Position numbers and translations under genes: made by a program. The notes under the pieces were generated by a model that worked only from the letters and a program-made list of their open reading frames with translations, had not been told where the DNA came from and did no database searches. Below, piece by piece: positions 6,299 to 23,061 of a stretch of DNA of 64,000 bases. Source of the DNA: a virus; the IMG/VR virus record IMGVR_UViG_3300034062_008235, positions 27,058 through 91,057 of that record; one strand, 5' to 3'. Within the stretch, counting starts at the first letter, position 1. Each line of letters starts with the position of its first letter.

Positions 6299-7609
6299 TC
6301 AAACTTCAGAATAATTTTTCAAAAATGCTAAATTTTCGCCAAACTTAGTATCAACAATAAATCTTAAGGGCTTATAGTCAGAAAATTCTTTCTGCAAAGT
6401 ATCTTTAATTTGCAATACAGATAATTTTAATTTTTCCTTTTTAACAGCAAAAACAAAACAATCGTGAATTGAAAACAATAATCTAAAATCTTTAGTTTCA
6501 ATTGATTTTATTTCATTCATCTTCATAAAACAAAATACTGCTGCTGGTGAATGTACAGAAAAATTCATGGCTTTATATCCCTCATCTGCAATAAAATTTT
6601 TCTTTCTTTTGAAGTAATCAAGACAATAGCCAAAATTTATTGCTTGAGCAGACTGCTGTGAAACATAATCAAACGCTTTGCTAAATAAAGTCTTTATTTT
6701 ATTCAAATAAGTCTTGGCTTCCAAAATAGAACAACCTAAAGATTCTGATAACTTAGCTGGAGAAATACCATAAATACTTGGTAAAAATATCTTCTTACCT
6801 AAATCTTTATAGTTTTTATTTTCAAAATTATTTAAATCAAGAACATATTGAGCAATTTGTTCATACGGATGACATGTGTTATACAATAATGTATTTAAGT
6901 TAGCATCATTACTCAAAAATGCCAAAACATATAACTCCAATGCCTTAAAGTCAAACGATACAAATATTTCATCTTCTGATAAAACAAAATTTTTCTTAAT
7001 TTCATAAGTCAAAGTATGTGGATTAAAATTTCTATTAGAAAAAACTTTAGAATTCAATCTTCCATTTTCTTGCAATCTTGATGAATAATAAGGATAAACA
7101 AATGTAGCTTCACTATCCAATATGATAGCTTGATTTTCCATGTGTGGAATTGTTTCACATATTAATTTTTGAAAAACATTTTTATATATTTCAAAACTAT
7201 CATGCTTAATAAATTTCAAAAATATAGAAACTATGTCAGTCATTTTTTCAAAAGAACAACTTATATCATTGTAATCACAATACCAATTTAAATCAAAAAA
7301 TACTTTAAAATCAATTTGTTTAGTACAATTTTGTTTCAAACAAAAAGAATGAAATAACTTAGAATCTAAACAAATTATCGGTCGATTATATTCTCTTAAA
7401 CAATTATTCACATGGTGTACAAACGAACATGTATTGTTTTGATGTAATTTTATTTCAAATTTAGATCCTCTTGGTCCTTCAAGTTTTATATGAAGTAAAA
7501 GATTTTGTTTATCAGTTAAATCGGGTTGATTTAAAATTTGCAAATAAATAAATGGCTCGACACAAAATGTGTCGAAAATGTTTTCAAAAGTGGTTTTGTC
7601 AATACTCAC
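6299..7609 (-). CDS. divergent family A DNA polymerase (polymerase domain, no clear exonuclease)
   Basis: GRLNS, motif A DFKALELYVLAFLS, motif B KDLGKKIFLPSIYG, motif C IHDC; GTG start. Confidence 0.85.
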   Translation of the reverse strand: MSIDKTTFENIFDTFCVEPFIYLQILNQPDLTDKQNLLLHIKLEGPRGSKFEIKLHQNNTCSFVHHVNNCLREYNRPIICLDSKLFHSFCLKQNCTKQIDFKVFFDLNWYCDYNDISCSFEKMTDIVSIFLKFIKHDSFEIYKNVFQKLICETIPHMENQAIILDSEATFVYPYYSSRLQENGRLNSKVFSNRNFNPHTLTYEIKKNFVLSEDEIFVSFDFKALELYVLAFLSNDANLNTLLYNTCHPYEQIAQYVLDLNNFENKNYKDLGKKIFLPSIYGISPAKLSESLGCSILEAKTYLNKIKTLFSKAFDYVSQQSAQAINFGYCLDYFKRKKNFIADEGYKAMNFSVHSPAAVFCFMKMNEIKSIETKDFRLLFSIHDCFVFAVKKEKLKLSVLQIKDTLQKEFSDYKPLRFIVDTKFGENLAFLKNYSEV

Positions 7610-7615
7610 ACCAAA

Positions 7616-7644
7616 AATCTACGATTACTAAAAACTTAAGTCAA
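7616..7644 (-). promoter_or_regulatory. sigma70-type promoter for polA-like/replication operon
   Basis: TTGACT-N17-TAGATT; GTG start 6 nt after the -10, so probably leaderless. Confidence 0.65.
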
Positions 7645-7661
7645 ACATAATTTTTATTTTT

Positions 7662-7897
7662 TTTGGCACACTTTTTGCTTCGCGCGTTTATACTAAGTAT
7701 TTATATTCATCTTCAATTACTTCGTAATTGAAGATGCTTTAGTTTAAGTGGTACTAATTTACTCTTCGCTTCGCTCAGAGTAAATTAGCACCACTTAATA
7801 AAATATGATTTATTAAATAATCAAAATTAGAACTAATACTTATTAAGTTAATTATATTAATACTTAGTATTAATTAATACGCAAAAATCGTGCCAAA
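7662..7897. repeat. nested inverted-repeat element with two facing sigma54-consensus motifs (candidate origin or ncRNA)
   Basis: TGGCACACTTTTTGCT (+, 7664-7679) and TGGCACGATTTTTGCG (-, 7895-7880); inner IR TACTAAGTATT 7691-7701/7859-7869; 13-bp hairpin 7708-7736; 22-bp hairpin 7744-7798; AT-rich tract. Confidence 0.8.
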
Positions 7898-8069
7898 TGA
7901 CAAACAAAACAAGAAATATTTTTAGCTCGTAAAATCGCTTTAAACGCATTTAGTGTTAAAAATCGACCTGAGTCTCACTTGGATGTAGAAACGAATTCCT
8001 AGCCATGTTTATTAACGAATAAACGGCATATGTGACTGGAATGATCCCCATATAATTTCAAACTCAAGT

Positions 8070-8098
8070 TTGACTTTTAAGATTGAATGGATTAGAGT
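8070..8098 (+). promoter_or_regulatory. sigma70-type promoter
   Basis: TTGACT-N17-TAGAGT, ATG 6 nt downstream with no RBS. Confidence 0.65.
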
Positions 8099-8104
8099 AA
8101 AAAC

Positions 8105-8809
8105 ATGCGACAGATTTTTAAAACATCTACAGAACAACTGCTTAGTCTATCTGATGATTCAGATATGGTTTTTGCTTATCATTTGTTGATATATTATCTT
8201 AATTCTGAGTATCATTATTTTCCTGACTATAACCACACAAAATTTAATGATTTAAAACCTATAAGAAAACAATCAGCGTTTAAGTATCTTTTGAAATTTG
8301 TGAAAGATAAAAAAGAAATTTTCAAAGCGCCAGCTGAGTATTTTATTTTTATAAAAGCTCAAATGGAGATTATTAAAATCTTAGAAAACAAAAATCCAAT
8401 TATAAATCCAAGCCTATTGATTGGCGAAAAAGCTGAAAAAAGATATTTTGTTTGGATTAAGAAAATGCGAGAAAATAAGATGATGACAAAAACTGTCACG
8501 AGAAAACTTGAAGATAGATTTATATCATCTGCTTTTGAAAATACTATTGTATCTTTGAAAGATACATTAGGAGATAATTTTACATATGAAAATTTTTACA
8601 AAAATATTAGAAGAATATTATTGCAGATAAGAGCTAAACAAATTGATCCTATTTGGTGTTTTGTTAGCGAATGGGTTAATAAGTTACCAGACGACATAAA
8701 AAATGAAATTATTAGTTTAACAGAATGTGAAAAATATAAAGACTATAATGTTGATGATATAAAAAAAATTTACAATGAAAAGTTTAACAATTTATCTCAA
8801 GAGACATAA
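8105..8809 (+). CDS. hypothetical protein next to candidate origin
   Basis: 234 aa ORF with its own promoter. Confidence 0.75.
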   Translation: MRQIFKTSTEQLLSLSDDSDMVFAYHLLIYYLNSEYHYFPDYNHTKFNDLKPIRKQSAFKYLLKFVKDKKEIFKAPAEYFIFIKAQMEIIKILENKNPIINPSLLIGEKAEKRYFVWIKKMRENKMMTKTVTRKLEDRFISSAFENTIVSLKDTLGDNFTYENFYKNIRRILLQIRAKQIDPIWCFVSEWVNKLPDDIKNEIISLTECEKYKDYNVDDIKKIYNEKFNNLSQET

Positions 8810-10297: not shown

Positions 10298-11669
10298 CTC
10301 TTTTTGCAGAATGCTTTTTCAAGTAAGGATTGTTTTCAAACATAAAATCAATGTAAGTAACTTCTTTTTTGTCATCAGCTGTTCTTAATCCACGACCCAT
10401 TCTTTGAATAATTAAATGATCAGCTTGCCCACCAGCAGCATTAATTAAATTGTGAATTTTAACATTGATACCAGTGTTGAATATTTGTTGAGTAGCAATT
10501 GCTATACAACTAGTTTTAGAACTTTGTAACATATTAATTACTTCTTTTCTAGAATCATTATCGTCTTTTCCTGTGATCCAATAAGCGGTTGGGATCATTT
10601 TTTTCAATTGATCACCATGCGCAATTCTGTCTACTAAAATTAATGTTCTGCCAGAAAACGCATTTGTCAATTCAACAACTTTATTATGTAAAGTTAAATT
10701 GTTGACAATACCAAGATCTATAGCTTCACTATAGATTGATAAGGAAAGATCAGGTTCACATATTTTGTAAAACAAGCATTTTGACTGAGATAATCTGCCT
10801 TTTTGTTGTAAGTCTGCTGTCGTTACTCTTCCTGTGGAAGTTGTAGTCGTCTTGATTATTGGACCGAAGAATCCTTTGACAAGATATTTGTGTACCTTGT
10901 CTGTTTCACCATGCTTAAACGGTGTTGCCGACAAACCTATCCTTATGACTGTATTTTTCATCTTTTTGTATATTTCTTTAGCTGTATCAGATACCATATC
11001 ATGAACTTCATCTACAATAAGAACTCTTATGCTATCAAGCTTGTCTTCCAAATGATGAATTGATTGCGCAGTAGCAACAGTTATTTTATTTGGATTATTG
11101 TTTCCACCCCAACAAGAACCAATATTTTTAAATCCCCATCTAGAAATTTCATCAAAATTCTGAGAAGCTAAAGACTTTCTGTTTTGCAAAACTAAAGTCG
11201 GTTCATGTTCTCCTAAAGCCTTTAAGAGAGCAGACATAAGGAATGTTTTCCCAGAAGCGGTAGGAGCAACAATAATTCCACGTTTGTGTTTGATCGCTTG
11301 GTTTACTAGGTCAACTTGATAATCTGTTAATTCGATTTTAGTGTTCATATCTTCGTTGTAATATTGTAAAAAATGTTCATCAATTTTATCGAATTTAAAT
11401 TTAATTGGTATTCTTAAATCACTAAGATCATATGATTCATTGAACTTTTTTACAATCATACAAATTTCTGGTAATATTCCGGTAAGAAATTTTCCTGTTT
11501 TTGCTGAAAAAAAGTTAACAAATCCATCCCACTTCTTAGATTTATAAAGAGGTGTGAATTGATAACCTTTTTGTCTAAATTTTAAATTAAGAATAATGTA
11601 TTTTAACATTTCTTGATTATCAGTTTGCAATTGACAGAAATCATTGTTAATTGTAATTGTAGTCGCCAT
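10251..11669 (-). CDS. uvsW: UvsW-like SF2 DNA helicase
   Basis: WDG, YQ, APTASGKT, DEVH, GLSAT, QRMGRGLR. Confidence 0.92.
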   Translation of the reverse strand: MATTITINNDFCQLQTDNQEMLKYIILNLKFRQKGYQFTPLYKSKKWDGFVNFFSAKTGKFLTGILPEICMIVKKFNESYDLSDLRIPIKFKFDKIDEHFLQYYNEDMNTKIELTDYQVDLVNQAIKHKRGIIVAPTASGKTFLMSALLKALGEHEPTLVLQNRKSLASQNFDEISRWGFKNIGSCWGGNNNPNKITVATAQSIHHLEDKLDSIRVLIVDEVHDMVSDTAKEIYKKMKNTVIRIGLSATPFKHGETDKVHKYLVKGFFGPIIKTTTTSTGRVTTADLQQKGRLSQSKCLFYKICEPDLSLSIYSEAIDLGIVNNLTLHNKVVELTNAFSGRTLILVDRIAHGDQLKKMIPTAYWITGKDDNDSRKEVINMLQSSKTSCIAIATQQIFNTGINVKIHNLINAAGGQADHLIIQRMGRGLRTADDKKEVTYIDFMFENNPYLKKHSAKRVRILEKEGHSLQFFD

Positions 11670-20423: not shown

Positions 20424-21671
20424 TTATTCAAAATCATCAAGATTATAAATAAATGATTGTTTAGGAATATGTCTTTTATTATCTTTGGATAAAAACCAAT
20501 GCCATCTTGTTGGATGTTCTGGAGTTACTTTGGTGCCCATTCCATCAGTAATAATAAATACTGCTGATGGATATTTTTTGTGTTTTAATTTTTCTTTTTG
20601 AATACAATCCTCTATAATGCTAAAACAAGTACCTCCACCACCATAAATTTTACCAGAAGACAAATCAGTTTCTTCAACTTTTGTATCGAAGCAAAATAAT
20701 CTGATATTAAACTTTTCTTTTGGCAAACTATTAGCAGCTGTGAAAAATCGTTCTGCCAAATTTATACAACTTCCTGACGTATCTAAAAAGAAATAAACAT
20801 CTGTTTTATTTTTACTAAGATGGAAACATTCTATTTCAGCGTTTGAAGGCAAGATAAGACCGTTGTAAAACCCACTCATTCTTCTAGATTTTCTAATCCA
20901 TTGTTCTTTTTCAATGCTGGAAAAGCGTAATGTCTCAAATTGCCACTTCTTTATGATTGATTCCCATTTTTTCTTTCTCGATTTTTTAACTTTATTAATT
21001 GTCATCCAAGAGCCTTTATCAACTCCTGCATTCTTAATATTATTGATAGCATCGCTTAATTGCTGTTTTTCAGAAGCATCCAATTGATCAATAGTTTGTT
21101 TGACAGCTTCTTCAAGCTGTTCATCTGTTAACCCTGAATGGTCATCAACAAGTTTGCCATTACTGTCTCCATTGCCATTGCCACCTCCATTGTTTTCTTT
21201 TTGTTTTTCAATTTCATTGTAGTAAAATTCAGTGGATTCATCATCTGGATAAGGAAACCCTAAATACTTTTTATCTTTAAAAACAGTATCAACCCAACAA
21301 TACTCATTGTTTGAGTCAACATCTTCTTTGATAAAACCAAAATCTCTCACAAGAGAATGATTTACGACAACATCCATGGCTATATTGGATATCTTATTGT
21401 CAACTCCTTCAAGAAATCTTGACCCATGTTGAAGCACAATATGCAGTGCTTCGTGGCATATAACAAACATTTTTTTATAATCATCACATTTTTCCCAAAA
21501 CTTTTCATTGAAAAGAAAGTTAATAAACTTTCCTTCTTTATCAAATTGAACTGCTGCTGTAGGAATCTTATCAGTGAAAAAGGGCTTGCCCATTTCTACA
21601 ATTTTGTAGAAAAGACTATGATGGCAAGCAAGCTTGTTTTTAAGCCTTTCCCAATCAGAATTAATATCCAT
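20424..21671 (-). CDS. metallopeptidase (HExxH) + vWA domain protein
   Basis: HEALH, NIAMD, DTSGS MIDAS, GGGT, ITDG. Confidence 0.88.
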   Translation of the reverse strand: MDINSDWERLKNKLACHHSLFYKIVEMGKPFFTDKIPTAAVQFDKEGKFINFLFNEKFWEKCDDYKKMFVICHEALHIVLQHGSRFLEGVDNKISNIAMDVVVNHSLVRDFGFIKEDVDSNNEYCWVDTVFKDKKYLGFPYPDDESTEFYYNEIEKQKENNGGGNGNGDSNGKLVDDHSGLTDEQLEEAVKQTIDQLDASEKQQLSDAINNIKNAGVDKGSWMTINKVKKSRKKKWESIIKKWQFETLRFSSIEKEQWIRKSRRMSGFYNGLILPSNAEIECFHLSKNKTDVYFFLDTSGSCINLAERFFTAANSLPKEKFNIRLFCFDTKVEETDLSSGKIYGGGGTCFSIIEDCIQKEKLKHKKYPSAVFIITDGMGTKVTPEHPTRWHWFLSKDNKRHIPKQSFIYNLDDFE

Positions 21672-23061
21672 TTTGAATTCCTTTCATTACGTTGATGATC
21701 CCCAAATTTTCACATTTATTTTTGAAAACTAAGTTCTGAGTAACCTTGACAGCAAACATTTCATCCAGTTTTACATAACATTTATTCCATACTTTTACCA
21801 ATGAATCCAAATTATGCTGCTTTATAGTTGCTTCCCATTTTTCAATCACAAAGTCCACAATAAATGCTATCGTCTTTTTACAAACAACAATATCTGGATC
21901 ATCTGGTAAATTTTGCAAAATAATTTTAATTCTATCGTTTTTGTTACAATTTTCTATTTGATTTATGTAATCAGCGTTTGACAAAGATTCAGCAATATCA
22001 TTAGTAGCAGTTTTGCTTATACTTAAATCTTCTACACTATTATTAGCGTAGTACGATCTTATTTTCATCAATGCCTTGGGATTAGAACCAGCAGTTAATA
22101 TTTGTGTGATTACATTCTTAAACTCTTGATTACTATCTTTATTTTTTAAGATATAATCAGATATATTCAATTTTTCATCTGCAATTAATAAAGATAATTT
22201 TTCTCTTTTCAAAAGAGGAATAAAAAATTCCATGTAATTTTCATTAAGATTAATTATTTTTATTGCTGAAGCATAATTGTTCTCAATATTTAAAAACAAT
22301 TTTGCTTCTTTTATATTTTTCGTTTCGTATAATTTAGATAATTTCTTATCAATTGGTCCATTACTAATATCTTGTCTAAGTTTACCAATGTTACTATCTT
22401 TTGGTAGAATATCTTCTAGAGGAATACCTTTACTCATAAATTGCAAAGCATAATCAAGTCTTCTAGGAGATATCTGTTTTTTAATATTTTCTGGTAAATC
22501 ATTCCACCAATTAATACTAGCAGCAGCTATATCGTTTCCATACTTATTGCTAAAGTATTCTGTATCACAAGTATATGGAACAACAATTTGATTGGCATGA
22601 AAACGATCCTTATGTGCTGGATCTAACCTTTCAACATCATAAGTTCCTTGTTCATCTTCTGGATTGATAGCTGCCCAAACTACTTTCAGGTTAGGAAACT
22701 TTCTGCCATTGATTGATTTGAATTGACATAATTCAAGCAAAGCATTTCTAATCTTACTGGGAGATCTGTTGAATTCATCAACAAAAATAGCTTGTATTTT
22801 ACCTTCATCAACAAATGCTTTTGGAGGTATAATTTCAATACATTTTTTGCCGTTATATTCAACTTCTTTGGGAATTCCGATAAAATCAACCCATGGATCA
22901 AGCGTACTTCCAGAAAAGTAAAGCCATGATTCATTTAAAACTAAGCCTTTTTCTTCAAAAGCTTGTTTTACAATAGATGTTTTACCAACACCATGTTCTC
23001 CAGTAAGAAGAACATTCATTTCACAGTCGTAGTACTTCTTTAACCTTTCAACCAAATTCAT
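21661..23061 (-). CDS. MoxR-like AAA+ ATPase
   Basis: GEHGVGKT, FVDEFNR, AAIN, LDPA.KDRF; coupled to the vWA gene. Confidence 0.88.
   Translation of the reverse strand: MNLVERLKKYYDCEMNVLLTGEHGVGKTSIVKQAFEEKGLVLNESWLYFSGSTLDPWVDFIGIPKEVEYNGKKCIEIIPPKAFVDEGKIQAIFVDEFNRSPSKIRNALLELCQFKSINGRKFPNLKVVWAAINPEDEQGTYDVERLDPAHKDRFHANQIVVPYTCDTEYFSNKYGNDIAAASINWWNDLPENIKKQISPRRLDYALQFMSKGIPLEDILPKDSNIGKLRQDISNGPIDKKLSKLYETKNIKEAKLFLNIENNYASAIKIINLNENYMEFFIPLLKREKLSLLIADEKLNISDYILKNKDSNQEFKNVITQILTAGSNPKALMKIRSYYANNSVEDLSISKTATNDIAESLSNADYINQIENCNKNDRIKIILQNLPDDPDIVVCKKTIAFIVDFVIEKWEATIKQHNLDSLVKVWNKCYVKLDEMFAVKVTQNLVFKNKCENLGIINVMKGIQNGY

Follow-up and report, generated by a model that had tools for sequence, protein, structure and literature searches.

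Convergent sigma-54-type promoter boxes around GAA-capped palindromes form a conserved element, and a candidate replication origin, in a clade of uncultured phages

The T4 replication origins oriF (uvsY) and oriG (34) each combine an activator-dependent promoter with a downstream A+T-rich unwinding element, where an R-loop transcript serves as the primer for the leading strand; origins in T4 are often situated at points of transcriptional divergence (PMC3016281). The phage lambda origin, ori-lambda, is located within gene O and depends on transcription in cis (PMC3349717). Mini-hairpins of the GCGAAGC type are exceptionally stable in DNA and are present at the priming sites of G4, St-1, and alpha3, at ssiA of RSF1010, and at the early promoters of N4 (PMC13037366). 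Pseudomonas phage YuA is reported to have a promoter of the sigma-54 type (PMC10914365). Here we describe a conserved non-coding element (core 7650-7910) in a 64-kb stretch of viral DNA, which forms the last 64 kb of a 91-kb contig (IMG/VR virus record IMGVR_UViG_3300034062_008235) and which we refer to as the window, and we compare this element with the systems above. Little is known, to our knowledge, of how replication begins in very large phages, and we know of hardly any link between sigma-54 and phage biology beyond the YuA report.

The element sits in a 495-bp gap (7610-8104) between a minus-strand, family-A DNA polymerase-like gene (polA) and a plus-strand gene that we call p234, and no small open reading frame (ORF) of note was found in this gap. 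A preliminary description of this DNA had placed here two inward-facing TGGCAC-N5-TTGC boxes with GG-N10-GC spacing, a 13-bp hairpin, a 22-bp hairpin with one mismatch, and an A+T tract, with outward sigma70-like promoters on either side, and each of these was found at the same position in our analysis. That description also called the gap the only long non-coding stretch of the window, which it is not, as a crude ORF map has other gaps of 431-579 bp. The features of the core are as follows.

7664-7679, plus strand, pointing right: left (polA-proximal) -24/-12 box TGGCAC-ACTTT-TTGC-T, TGGCACACTTTTTGCT, predicted start about 7690
7691-7701: TACTAAGTATT, a near-palindrome resembling an operator, at the predicted start of the left box; as a left copy, restricted to the window genome
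7708-7736: hairpin 1, perfect 13-bp palindrome, loop TTC on the plus strand (C-GAA-G on the minus strand), followed by CTTTAGTTT on the plus strand
7744-7798: hairpin 2, 22-bp stem with one mismatch (A.C on the plus strand, G.T on the minus strand), loop TCGCTTCGCTC
7762-7780: invariant 19-nt tip of hairpin 2, CTCTTCGCTTCGCTCAGAG; on the minus strand, a GCGAAGC mini-hairpin
7799-7880: A+T-rich tract, 82 bp, 89% A+T, directly downstream of the right promoter; candidate DNA unwinding element
7895-7880, minus strand, pointing left: right box TGGCAC-GATTT-TTGC-G, TGGCACGATTTTTGCG, predicted start about 7869

The predicted starts, 7690 on the plus strand and 7869 on the minus strand, were placed with the C of the GC dinucleotide at -12. 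Both boxes are embedded in larger inverted arms (7651-7706 and 7854-7908), within which two inverted 20-nt arms (7687-7706 and 7854-7873) are 90% complementary and hold the 11-mer TACTAAGTATT. The occurrence of an identical 11-mer at both predicted starts, as had been described, is particular to the window genome; in relatives only its right-hand copy is conserved. An alternating purine-pyrimidine, G+C-rich run directly follows the -12 TTGC of the left box (7676-7688), reading TTCGCGCG in the window and TTCGTGCGTGTGCGTGCG at the same position in the distant relatives L181, L212, L213, and L208; this is an odd composition for a place where polymerase must melt DNA.

When 3.5 kb around the locus were searched as DNA against INPHARED phages, no match was found, and polA used as a single-protein query retrieved no related loci. 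Relatives were retrieved instead by DNA patterns (box plus motif; hairpin 2 tip) and by a five-sequence polA alignment, and the distant members L181/L212, L213, and L208 came from searches with the exact convergent pair and with an extended left box. The gene order dnaB-p184-polA, element, p234 is common to 13 lineages. These include a close set of nine, with polA products 70-81% identical to that of the window, and the distant members, in which polA and p234 are just 33-37% identical to the window's and the gene order is the same. The clade that carries the element consists of low-GC uncultured phages that are probably very large.

The exact consensus TGGCAC-N5-TTGC occurs twice in the 64-kb window, compared with 0.08 matches expected, and none of 100 shuffles reaches two. 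The whole 91-kb contig contains the same two boxes and no others, a 111-kb relative has the exact consensus at this locus only, and in five more clade contigs it is almost unique to the locus (reversed control, 0). Taken together, clade contigs of about 420 kb have hardly any exact consensus outside the element (reversed control, 0). In the nine close lineages, all 18 boxes are kept, and six different 5-nt spacers occur in them; TGGCAC is constant in the left box, the right one has either TGGCAC or TGGCAT, and TTGC is invariant. The TGGCAT variant seen in these relatives is also known from functional promoters such as Pu. Over the 13 lineages, 25 of 26 sites are kept with at least eight different spacers, the left box as the exact consensus in 13/13 and the right box in 12/13 (TGGCAC or TGGCAT, always with TTGC), and L181/L212 and L213 keep both boxes together with their polarity and synteny. 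When the window is compared with its close relatives, four-fold degenerate polA sites are 0.48-0.59 identical, showing that neutral sites are near saturation, and the boxes are 0.82-1.0 identical.

The invariance is limited to ten consensus positions, while the spacer and flanks drift, and this is the signature of -24/-12 recognition. The preliminary description would have abandoned sigma-54 for a phage protein if relatives kept the inverted repeat and lost the GG-N10-GC spacing; in the 13 lineages it is this geometry, not merely the inverted repeat, that is retained. From this exact and deeply conserved geometry, and from the precedent of phage YuA, we infer that sigma-54 RNA polymerase is the probable reader of the boxes.

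The two hairpins between the boxes have DNA fold z-scores of -11.5 and -12.5. In an alignment of the nine close lineages, 98% of cells in the two stems are paired, and 12 of 37 pairs show double changes with no one-sided change; none of 500 shuffles matches these values, and sliding the partners destroys the pairing. In hairpin 1 alone, 8 of 13 pairs change on both sides, pairing is 100%, and no change is one-sided, whereas the mid-stem irregularity of hairpin 2 is itself conserved. All of the covariation consists of double Watson-Crick changes, with no G.U pair in 333 cells. The hairpin block is 0.78-0.89 identical between the window and its close relatives, and the distant lineages have different yet again perfect palindromes of 14-15 and 9-10 bp. 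The lack of G.U intermediates and the perfect palindromes of the distant lineages are the pattern of a DNA palindrome and not of a typical RNA helix, and, together with the fixed strand of the loop, they point to hairpins of DNA and not of RNA. The loop is fixed to one strand, TTC on plus and C-GAA-G on minus, in both hairpins of nearly every lineage, the distant ones included; the exception is the larger hairpin of L208, which has a TGC loop. The heptamer GCTTCGC occurs twice in 91 kb, both times in the element and on the same strand. In Rfam, the element region had nothing at gathering thresholds and junk hairpin matches only at E-value thresholds, and tRNA scans of it were empty.

The A+T-rich tract between hairpin 2 and the right box is conserved in composition (86-91% A+T in 8 lineages), and its sequence is near the neutral rate (0.41-0.74 identical between the window and close relatives). 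It contains a conserved AATACTTAGTATT (7857-7869), and the segment AATACTAAGTATT at the right start is kept in 7/9 close lineages. In L213, the tract between the hairpins and the right box gives way to a 9-bp unit, AATTAAACC, repeated head to tail about 11 times (L213:7932-8206), an arrangement reminiscent of iterons.

The hairpin 2 tip is also present in other genomes. An exact CTCTTCGCTTCGCTCAGAG was found in 26 viral contigs, compared with none for a reversed-letter control, and besides the low-GC relatives about 20 contigs of 55-69% G+C carry it. In these high-GC phages, 13/14 tested ORFs that contain the 19-mer are replication initiators (O-like, 'primosomal', DUF1376, or with a DnaT C-terminal domain, in several PHROG families; phage or prophage contigs L008-L011, L015, L018, L019, L022, L024, L026-L028, and L031). 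Within these genes, the 19-mer sits at codons ~150-180, in the linker between the N- and C-terminal domains, always in the orientation of the gene and, in ten checked, in one reading frame (peptide SSLRSE), often preceded immediately by short tandem repeats, such as the 3 x 12 bp of L026. In bacteria, the 19-mer is present in at least 120 GTDB genome records from many phyla, mostly as an arm of REP/MITE-like palindromic repeats of the form TGTCAYTCTGAGCGAAGCGAAGARTC that are present several times in a genome (e.g. Caldilinea); the matches listed include Chloroflexota, Acidobacteriota, Planctomycetota, Caldisericota, Bacillota, Cyanobacteria-like lineages, Bacteroidales, and one archaeal MAG (metagenome-assembled genome). 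These bacterial repeats match no Rfam family and contain no TGGCAC boxes, and a literature search for the 19-mer as a string returned nothing relevant. In the phage clade, the 19-mer is single-copy, with one occurrence in 91 kb and one in 111 kb, and is not dispersed. As a module, the tip is therefore promiscuous, yet in phages it is strikingly tied to replication-initiator genes. A 19-nt mini-hairpin common to the initiator genes of unrelated phages and to dispersed repeats of many bacterial phyla points to a common, unnamed recognising factor.

We tentatively favor a reading of the core as a conserved, cis-acting, transcription-activated replication origin that resembles T4 oriF/oriG and uses enhancer-dependent sigma-54 promoters, although we doubt it slightly more than we believe it. 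The DNA-type covariation of the stems, the fixed strand of the GAA loop, the A+T tract (with the L213 repeats), and the tip in unrelated initiator genes lend the idea independent but indirect support. In the mechanism that we propose, host sigma-54 RNA polymerase would sit on both boxes as a closed complex until an enhancer-binding ATPase opened these complexes. Transcription would then enter the A+T tract and the palindromes as at T4 oriF/oriG, where an R-loop might form or the duplex might simply open. The displaced minus strand could extrude the very stable hairpins, which would keep the region open and might show the DnaB-type helicase and the primase of the phage where to load or prime. 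The same transcripts could continue into polA (leftward) and p234 (rightward).

A bolder version, possible but in our view doubtful, has sigma-54 closed complexes poised at either side of a mini-hairpin core, where they would be an ATP-gated switch for starting bidirectional replication from an enhancer-dependent origin; the GCGAAGC-tipped 19-nt hairpin would then be a widely shared origin or priming module, used also in lambda-O-type initiator genes and copied by cross-phylum repeats. In the literature searched, we found no description of a sigma-54-flanked origin or of this hairpin module. If true, these proposals would link phage DNA replication to a signalling route of the host that depends on an ATP-driven activator, would explain the clustering of sigma-54 sites in the non-coding DNA of many uncultured phages, and would provide a compact origin candidate of ~260 bp.

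Several observations weigh against an origin at this locus. The distant lineage L208 has no right box and keeps only the polA-proximal one, and plain promoter function would explain the conservation of the boxes too, since each of them points at a gene. No rpoN or enhancer-binding protein gene was found on any clade fragment searched. Nor was a matching pair of activator sites found; the covarying palindromes at about -100 to -150 on the two sides differ in sequence. In a terminator scan, hairpin 1 is also called as an intrinsic terminator, on the plus strand. The 19-mer is missing from the distant clade members, which have plain GAA-capped palindromes, so the clade appears to require a capped perfect hairpin and not the 19-mer itself. 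In addition, the 19-mer might have reached initiator genes by selfish spread, as it is a dispersed repeat in bacteria. Finally, GC skew tracks gene strand and is uninformative on a fragment of ~16% of a genome. The two palindromes named here lie in the flanking sequences.

7557-7575: palindrome TCGACACA-AAA-TGTGTCGA with perfect 8-bp arms, within polA codons (FDTFCVE), its center ~123 bp upstream of the left sigma-54 start
8007-8024: covarying palindrome GTTTATT-AACG-AATAAAC in the p234 leader, ~125-150 bp upstream of the right sigma-54 box

The palindrome in polA is kept in relatives, and in L030 a compensatory G>A / C>T change preserves it at the cost of an Asp>Asn substitution; as an activator site it is a speculative candidate. 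The palindrome in the p234 leader reads CCGTTTA..TAAACGG, CCATTTA..TAAATGG, or TCGTTTA..TAAACGA in relatives. Our search for an activator with PF00158 gave matches at the level of the Walker A motif only, from MoxR-like and PrkA ATPases. The window encodes a MoxR-like ATPase (~21661-23061), and the 111-kb relative L154 encodes a full PrkA-type AAA+/kinase (G001:48305-50380; PF08298 and PF06798), neither of which is a sigma-54 activator.

The best-surviving alternative, which we nevertheless consider unlikely, is that the element serves transcriptional control alone, with the left box serving p234 and the right box the polA operon as distal, activator-dependent promoters that overlap face to face, and with the palindromes acting as operators, attenuators, or terminators in long leaders common to both. 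The boxes face each other, yet each is also directed at a conserved gene on the opposite side of the element, and the box kept in 13/13 lineages is the polA-proximal one, which points at p234. The passing of the terminator scan by hairpin 1 with CTTTAGTTT on the plus strand would fit this reading, as would the near-palindromes of the TACTAAGTA type at or near the starts, which resemble operators. However, both genes already have conserved proximal sigma70-like promoters, listed below.

7644-7616, minus strand: sigma70-like promoter TTGACT-N17-TAGATT for polA; AAGTCAA and CAC columns invariant in the alignment
7963-7991, plus strand: conserved sigma70-like promoter TCGACC-N17-TAGAAA (TTGACT-N17-TAAATA in relatives, by alignment), directed at p234
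8070-8098, plus strand: proximal sigma70-like p234 promoter TTGACT-N17-TAGAGT; the ATG is 6 nt past the -10 box

The polA GTG start, kept in all lineages, lies 6-7 nt past its -10 box, and this spacing of the flanking-gene starts implies leaderless or near-leaderless mRNAs. In L007 and L016, p234 starts 9 codons earlier and the proximal promoter is absent. The preliminary description had concluded from the outward promoters that the boxes are not needed to express the flanking genes; the promoters themselves hold up, but the conclusion has to be softened, as the boxes could be distal promoters, and overlapping sigma70/sigma54 dual promoters are known in bacteria, for example at glmY. RNA leaders normally tolerate G.U pairs, of which the 333 cells contain none, and control of transcription alone leaves unexplained the fixed strand of the GAA loop, the iteron-like array of L213, and the presence of the tip within initiator genes.

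Near-palindromes of the TACTAAGTA type may repeatedly accompany sigma-54 boxes in phages. In L004, a GC-richer phage, two tandem sigma-54-like boxes are interleaved with two copies of GGTACTAAGTAGTAC (L004:1780-1960), upstream of a block whose last gene is a terminase gene, and in the distant relative L208 the element contains GTACTACTAAGTAGTAC (~10860-10900). As a match to the pattern of sigma-54 box plus TACTAAGTA, L004 was rejected because it lies near a terminase gene and not near replication genes. A reading of TTTGCTTCG as a T4 MotA box was also rejected, because it stands 6 nt, and not ~12, from the -10-like TATACT.

It is also conceivable, though improbable, that sigma-54 polymerase docks at the boxes without making RNA, the closed complexes being bookends, roadblocks, or anchors that might insulate the palindromes from the outward sigma70 promoters or tether the DNA to some place in the cell. 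In 32 unrelated viral contigs (L174-L205), two exact sigma-54 consensus boxes converge at a distance of 175-205 bp, and in most of these contigs the pairs belong to clusters of 4-12 sites that all fall within a single non-coding block, a pattern that docking would suit. In one family of these (L186, L188, L192, L197, L202, and L205), two tandem perfect DnaA boxes (TTATCCACA) lie at the center, next to lysis and terminase genes; in L192, small genes lie on one side of the cluster and endolysin, terminase, and portal genes on the other. Docking would also be consistent with our finding neither an activator gene nor a common activator site, and with the G+C-rich run directly past the left-box -12, where melting is expected. 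In contrast to those clusters, the element has a single pair and not an array, its precise inward orientation in every lineage is not required by mere docking, and we found no experimental precedent in the literature searched.

Readings in which the element yields RNA products, or in which sigma-54 plays no part, fit less well. We give little credence to a pair of sigma-54-dependent small or antisense RNAs, consisting of a ~55-nt RNA from the left box that ends at hairpin 1 and a longer, complementary RNA from the right box. Sigma-54-dependent small RNAs are well known in bacteria (Qrr, GlmY, and CrcZ), the geometry of promoter and terminator-like hairpin is suitable, and AATACTAAGTATT at the right start is conserved as noted above. 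However, there is no conservation of the 5' single-stranded part of the left RNA, which would be its seed, a U-tail is missing from hairpin 2 on both strands, and neither G.U pairs nor an Rfam match were found. The complementary structured RNAs that the preliminary description offered as an alternative are weakened by the same absence of G.U pairs and of conserved 5' segments. Barely credible, finally, is the proposal that a phage protein binds the boxes, or that the unit is a domesticated or selfish palindromic element with terminal inverted repeats that resemble sigma-54 promoters: the boxes do lie within larger inverted arms (7651-7706 and 7854-7908) and the tip does belong to a dispersed palindromic repeat family of many bacterial phyla, but only the ten consensus positions are invariant while spacer and flanks drift, the element is single-copy at the same syntenic place in 13 lineages, and the bacterial repeats are without TGGCAC boxes.

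The two genes that adjoin the element are the following.

6299-7609, minus strand: family-A DNA polymerase-like gene (polA), 436 amino acids, GTG start; PF00476, E 5.5e-26, and a PHROG DNA polymerase match; orthologues in 13 lineages
8105-8809, plus strand: p234 gene, 234 amino acids, all-helical product of unassigned family, always adjoining the element

The polA gene heads a leftward replication block that continues with p184, a DnaB-like helicase (PHROG match), and a dCMP deaminase, and the element is the point of transcriptional divergence at the head of this block. The contig has a G+C content of 32.6%, uses the standard genetic code, and is estimated by CheckV to be ~16% complete. Its DnaB-type helicase has its nearest named record in the uncultured 595-kb phage LR756511 (35.6%), and because of this similarity the window virus is probably a very large phage; LR756511 itself contains neither the hairpin tip nor any convergent sigma-54 pair. 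The contig has Shine-Dalgarno sites and TTGACA/TATAAT promoters, and these canonical signals suggest a host whose machinery is of the canonical kind and argue against a Bacteroidota host.

The p234 family comprises ~112 representative clusters, all of ~220-245 amino acids, without a sequence match in Pfam, PHROG, or PDB for any of them. An AlphaFold (AF2) model of p234 built from a deep alignment is confident and all-helical, with a pLDDT (predicted local distance difference test score) of 93.5. Its best Foldseek match in PDB is T4 gp59 (1c1k), a weak one (E 0.59), and a comparison with BFVD gave several 'DNA helicase loader' matches with probabilities of up to 0.95 and 0.77. Direct comparison with gp59 was also weak (VIA-align Z 3.4, rmsd 4.3 over 88 residues; hhalign probability 0.4). 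These structural resemblances, weak as they are, make it possible that p234 is a replication accessory or helicase-loader-like protein.

Among the known systems, dispersed bacterial repeats of the REP, BIME, or MITE type resemble the element in that the 19-mer is the core of their palindrome arms. They differ in that the element is single-copy at a fixed syntenic site in the phage clade, the 19-mer is the tip of a hairpin and not an arm, and TGTCA termini are absent. The likeness to ori-lambda belongs to the high-GC phages, in which the 19-nt tip stands at the linker of an O-like initiator after short tandem repeats. The window element is instead intergenic, clear iterons are present in the relative L213 only, and no O-like gene with iterons and an AT tract inside it was found near the element.

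With bacterial sigma-54 promoters (glnAp2, nifH, pspA, and Pu) and that of phage YuA, the boxes have in common an exact TGGCAC-N5-TTGC and its spacing of ten bases from GG to GC. Unlike those promoters, they face each other around non-coding palindromes, the region to be melted is G+C-rich, and no activator gene or clear upstream activator sites were found with the element. With the initiation signals of G4, St-1, alpha3, RSF1010 ssiA, and N4, the element shares GCGAAGC or C-GAA-G caps confined to one strand at the presumed initiation site, in its case GNA-triloop mini-hairpins of the GCGAAGC type with a loop polarity that the distant relatives retain. At those signals, a defined primase or polymerase works on a single-stranded template, whereas the window DNA is duplex.

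The likeness to T4 oriF/oriG lies in a promoter followed by an A+T-rich element (here the right box, followed directly by 82 bp of 89% A+T), in the position at a point of transcriptional divergence, and in the helicase and polymerase of the phage's own, a likeness that needs no common sequence motif. At T4, there is one MotA/sigma70 middle promoter, and the window element has two convergent sigma-54-type promoters; the T4 origins have no perfect palindromes, and the element has two conserved ones, at which an R-loop is proposed only. As a candidate origin, the element is therefore best called a variant of the origins built from a promoter and an unwinding element.

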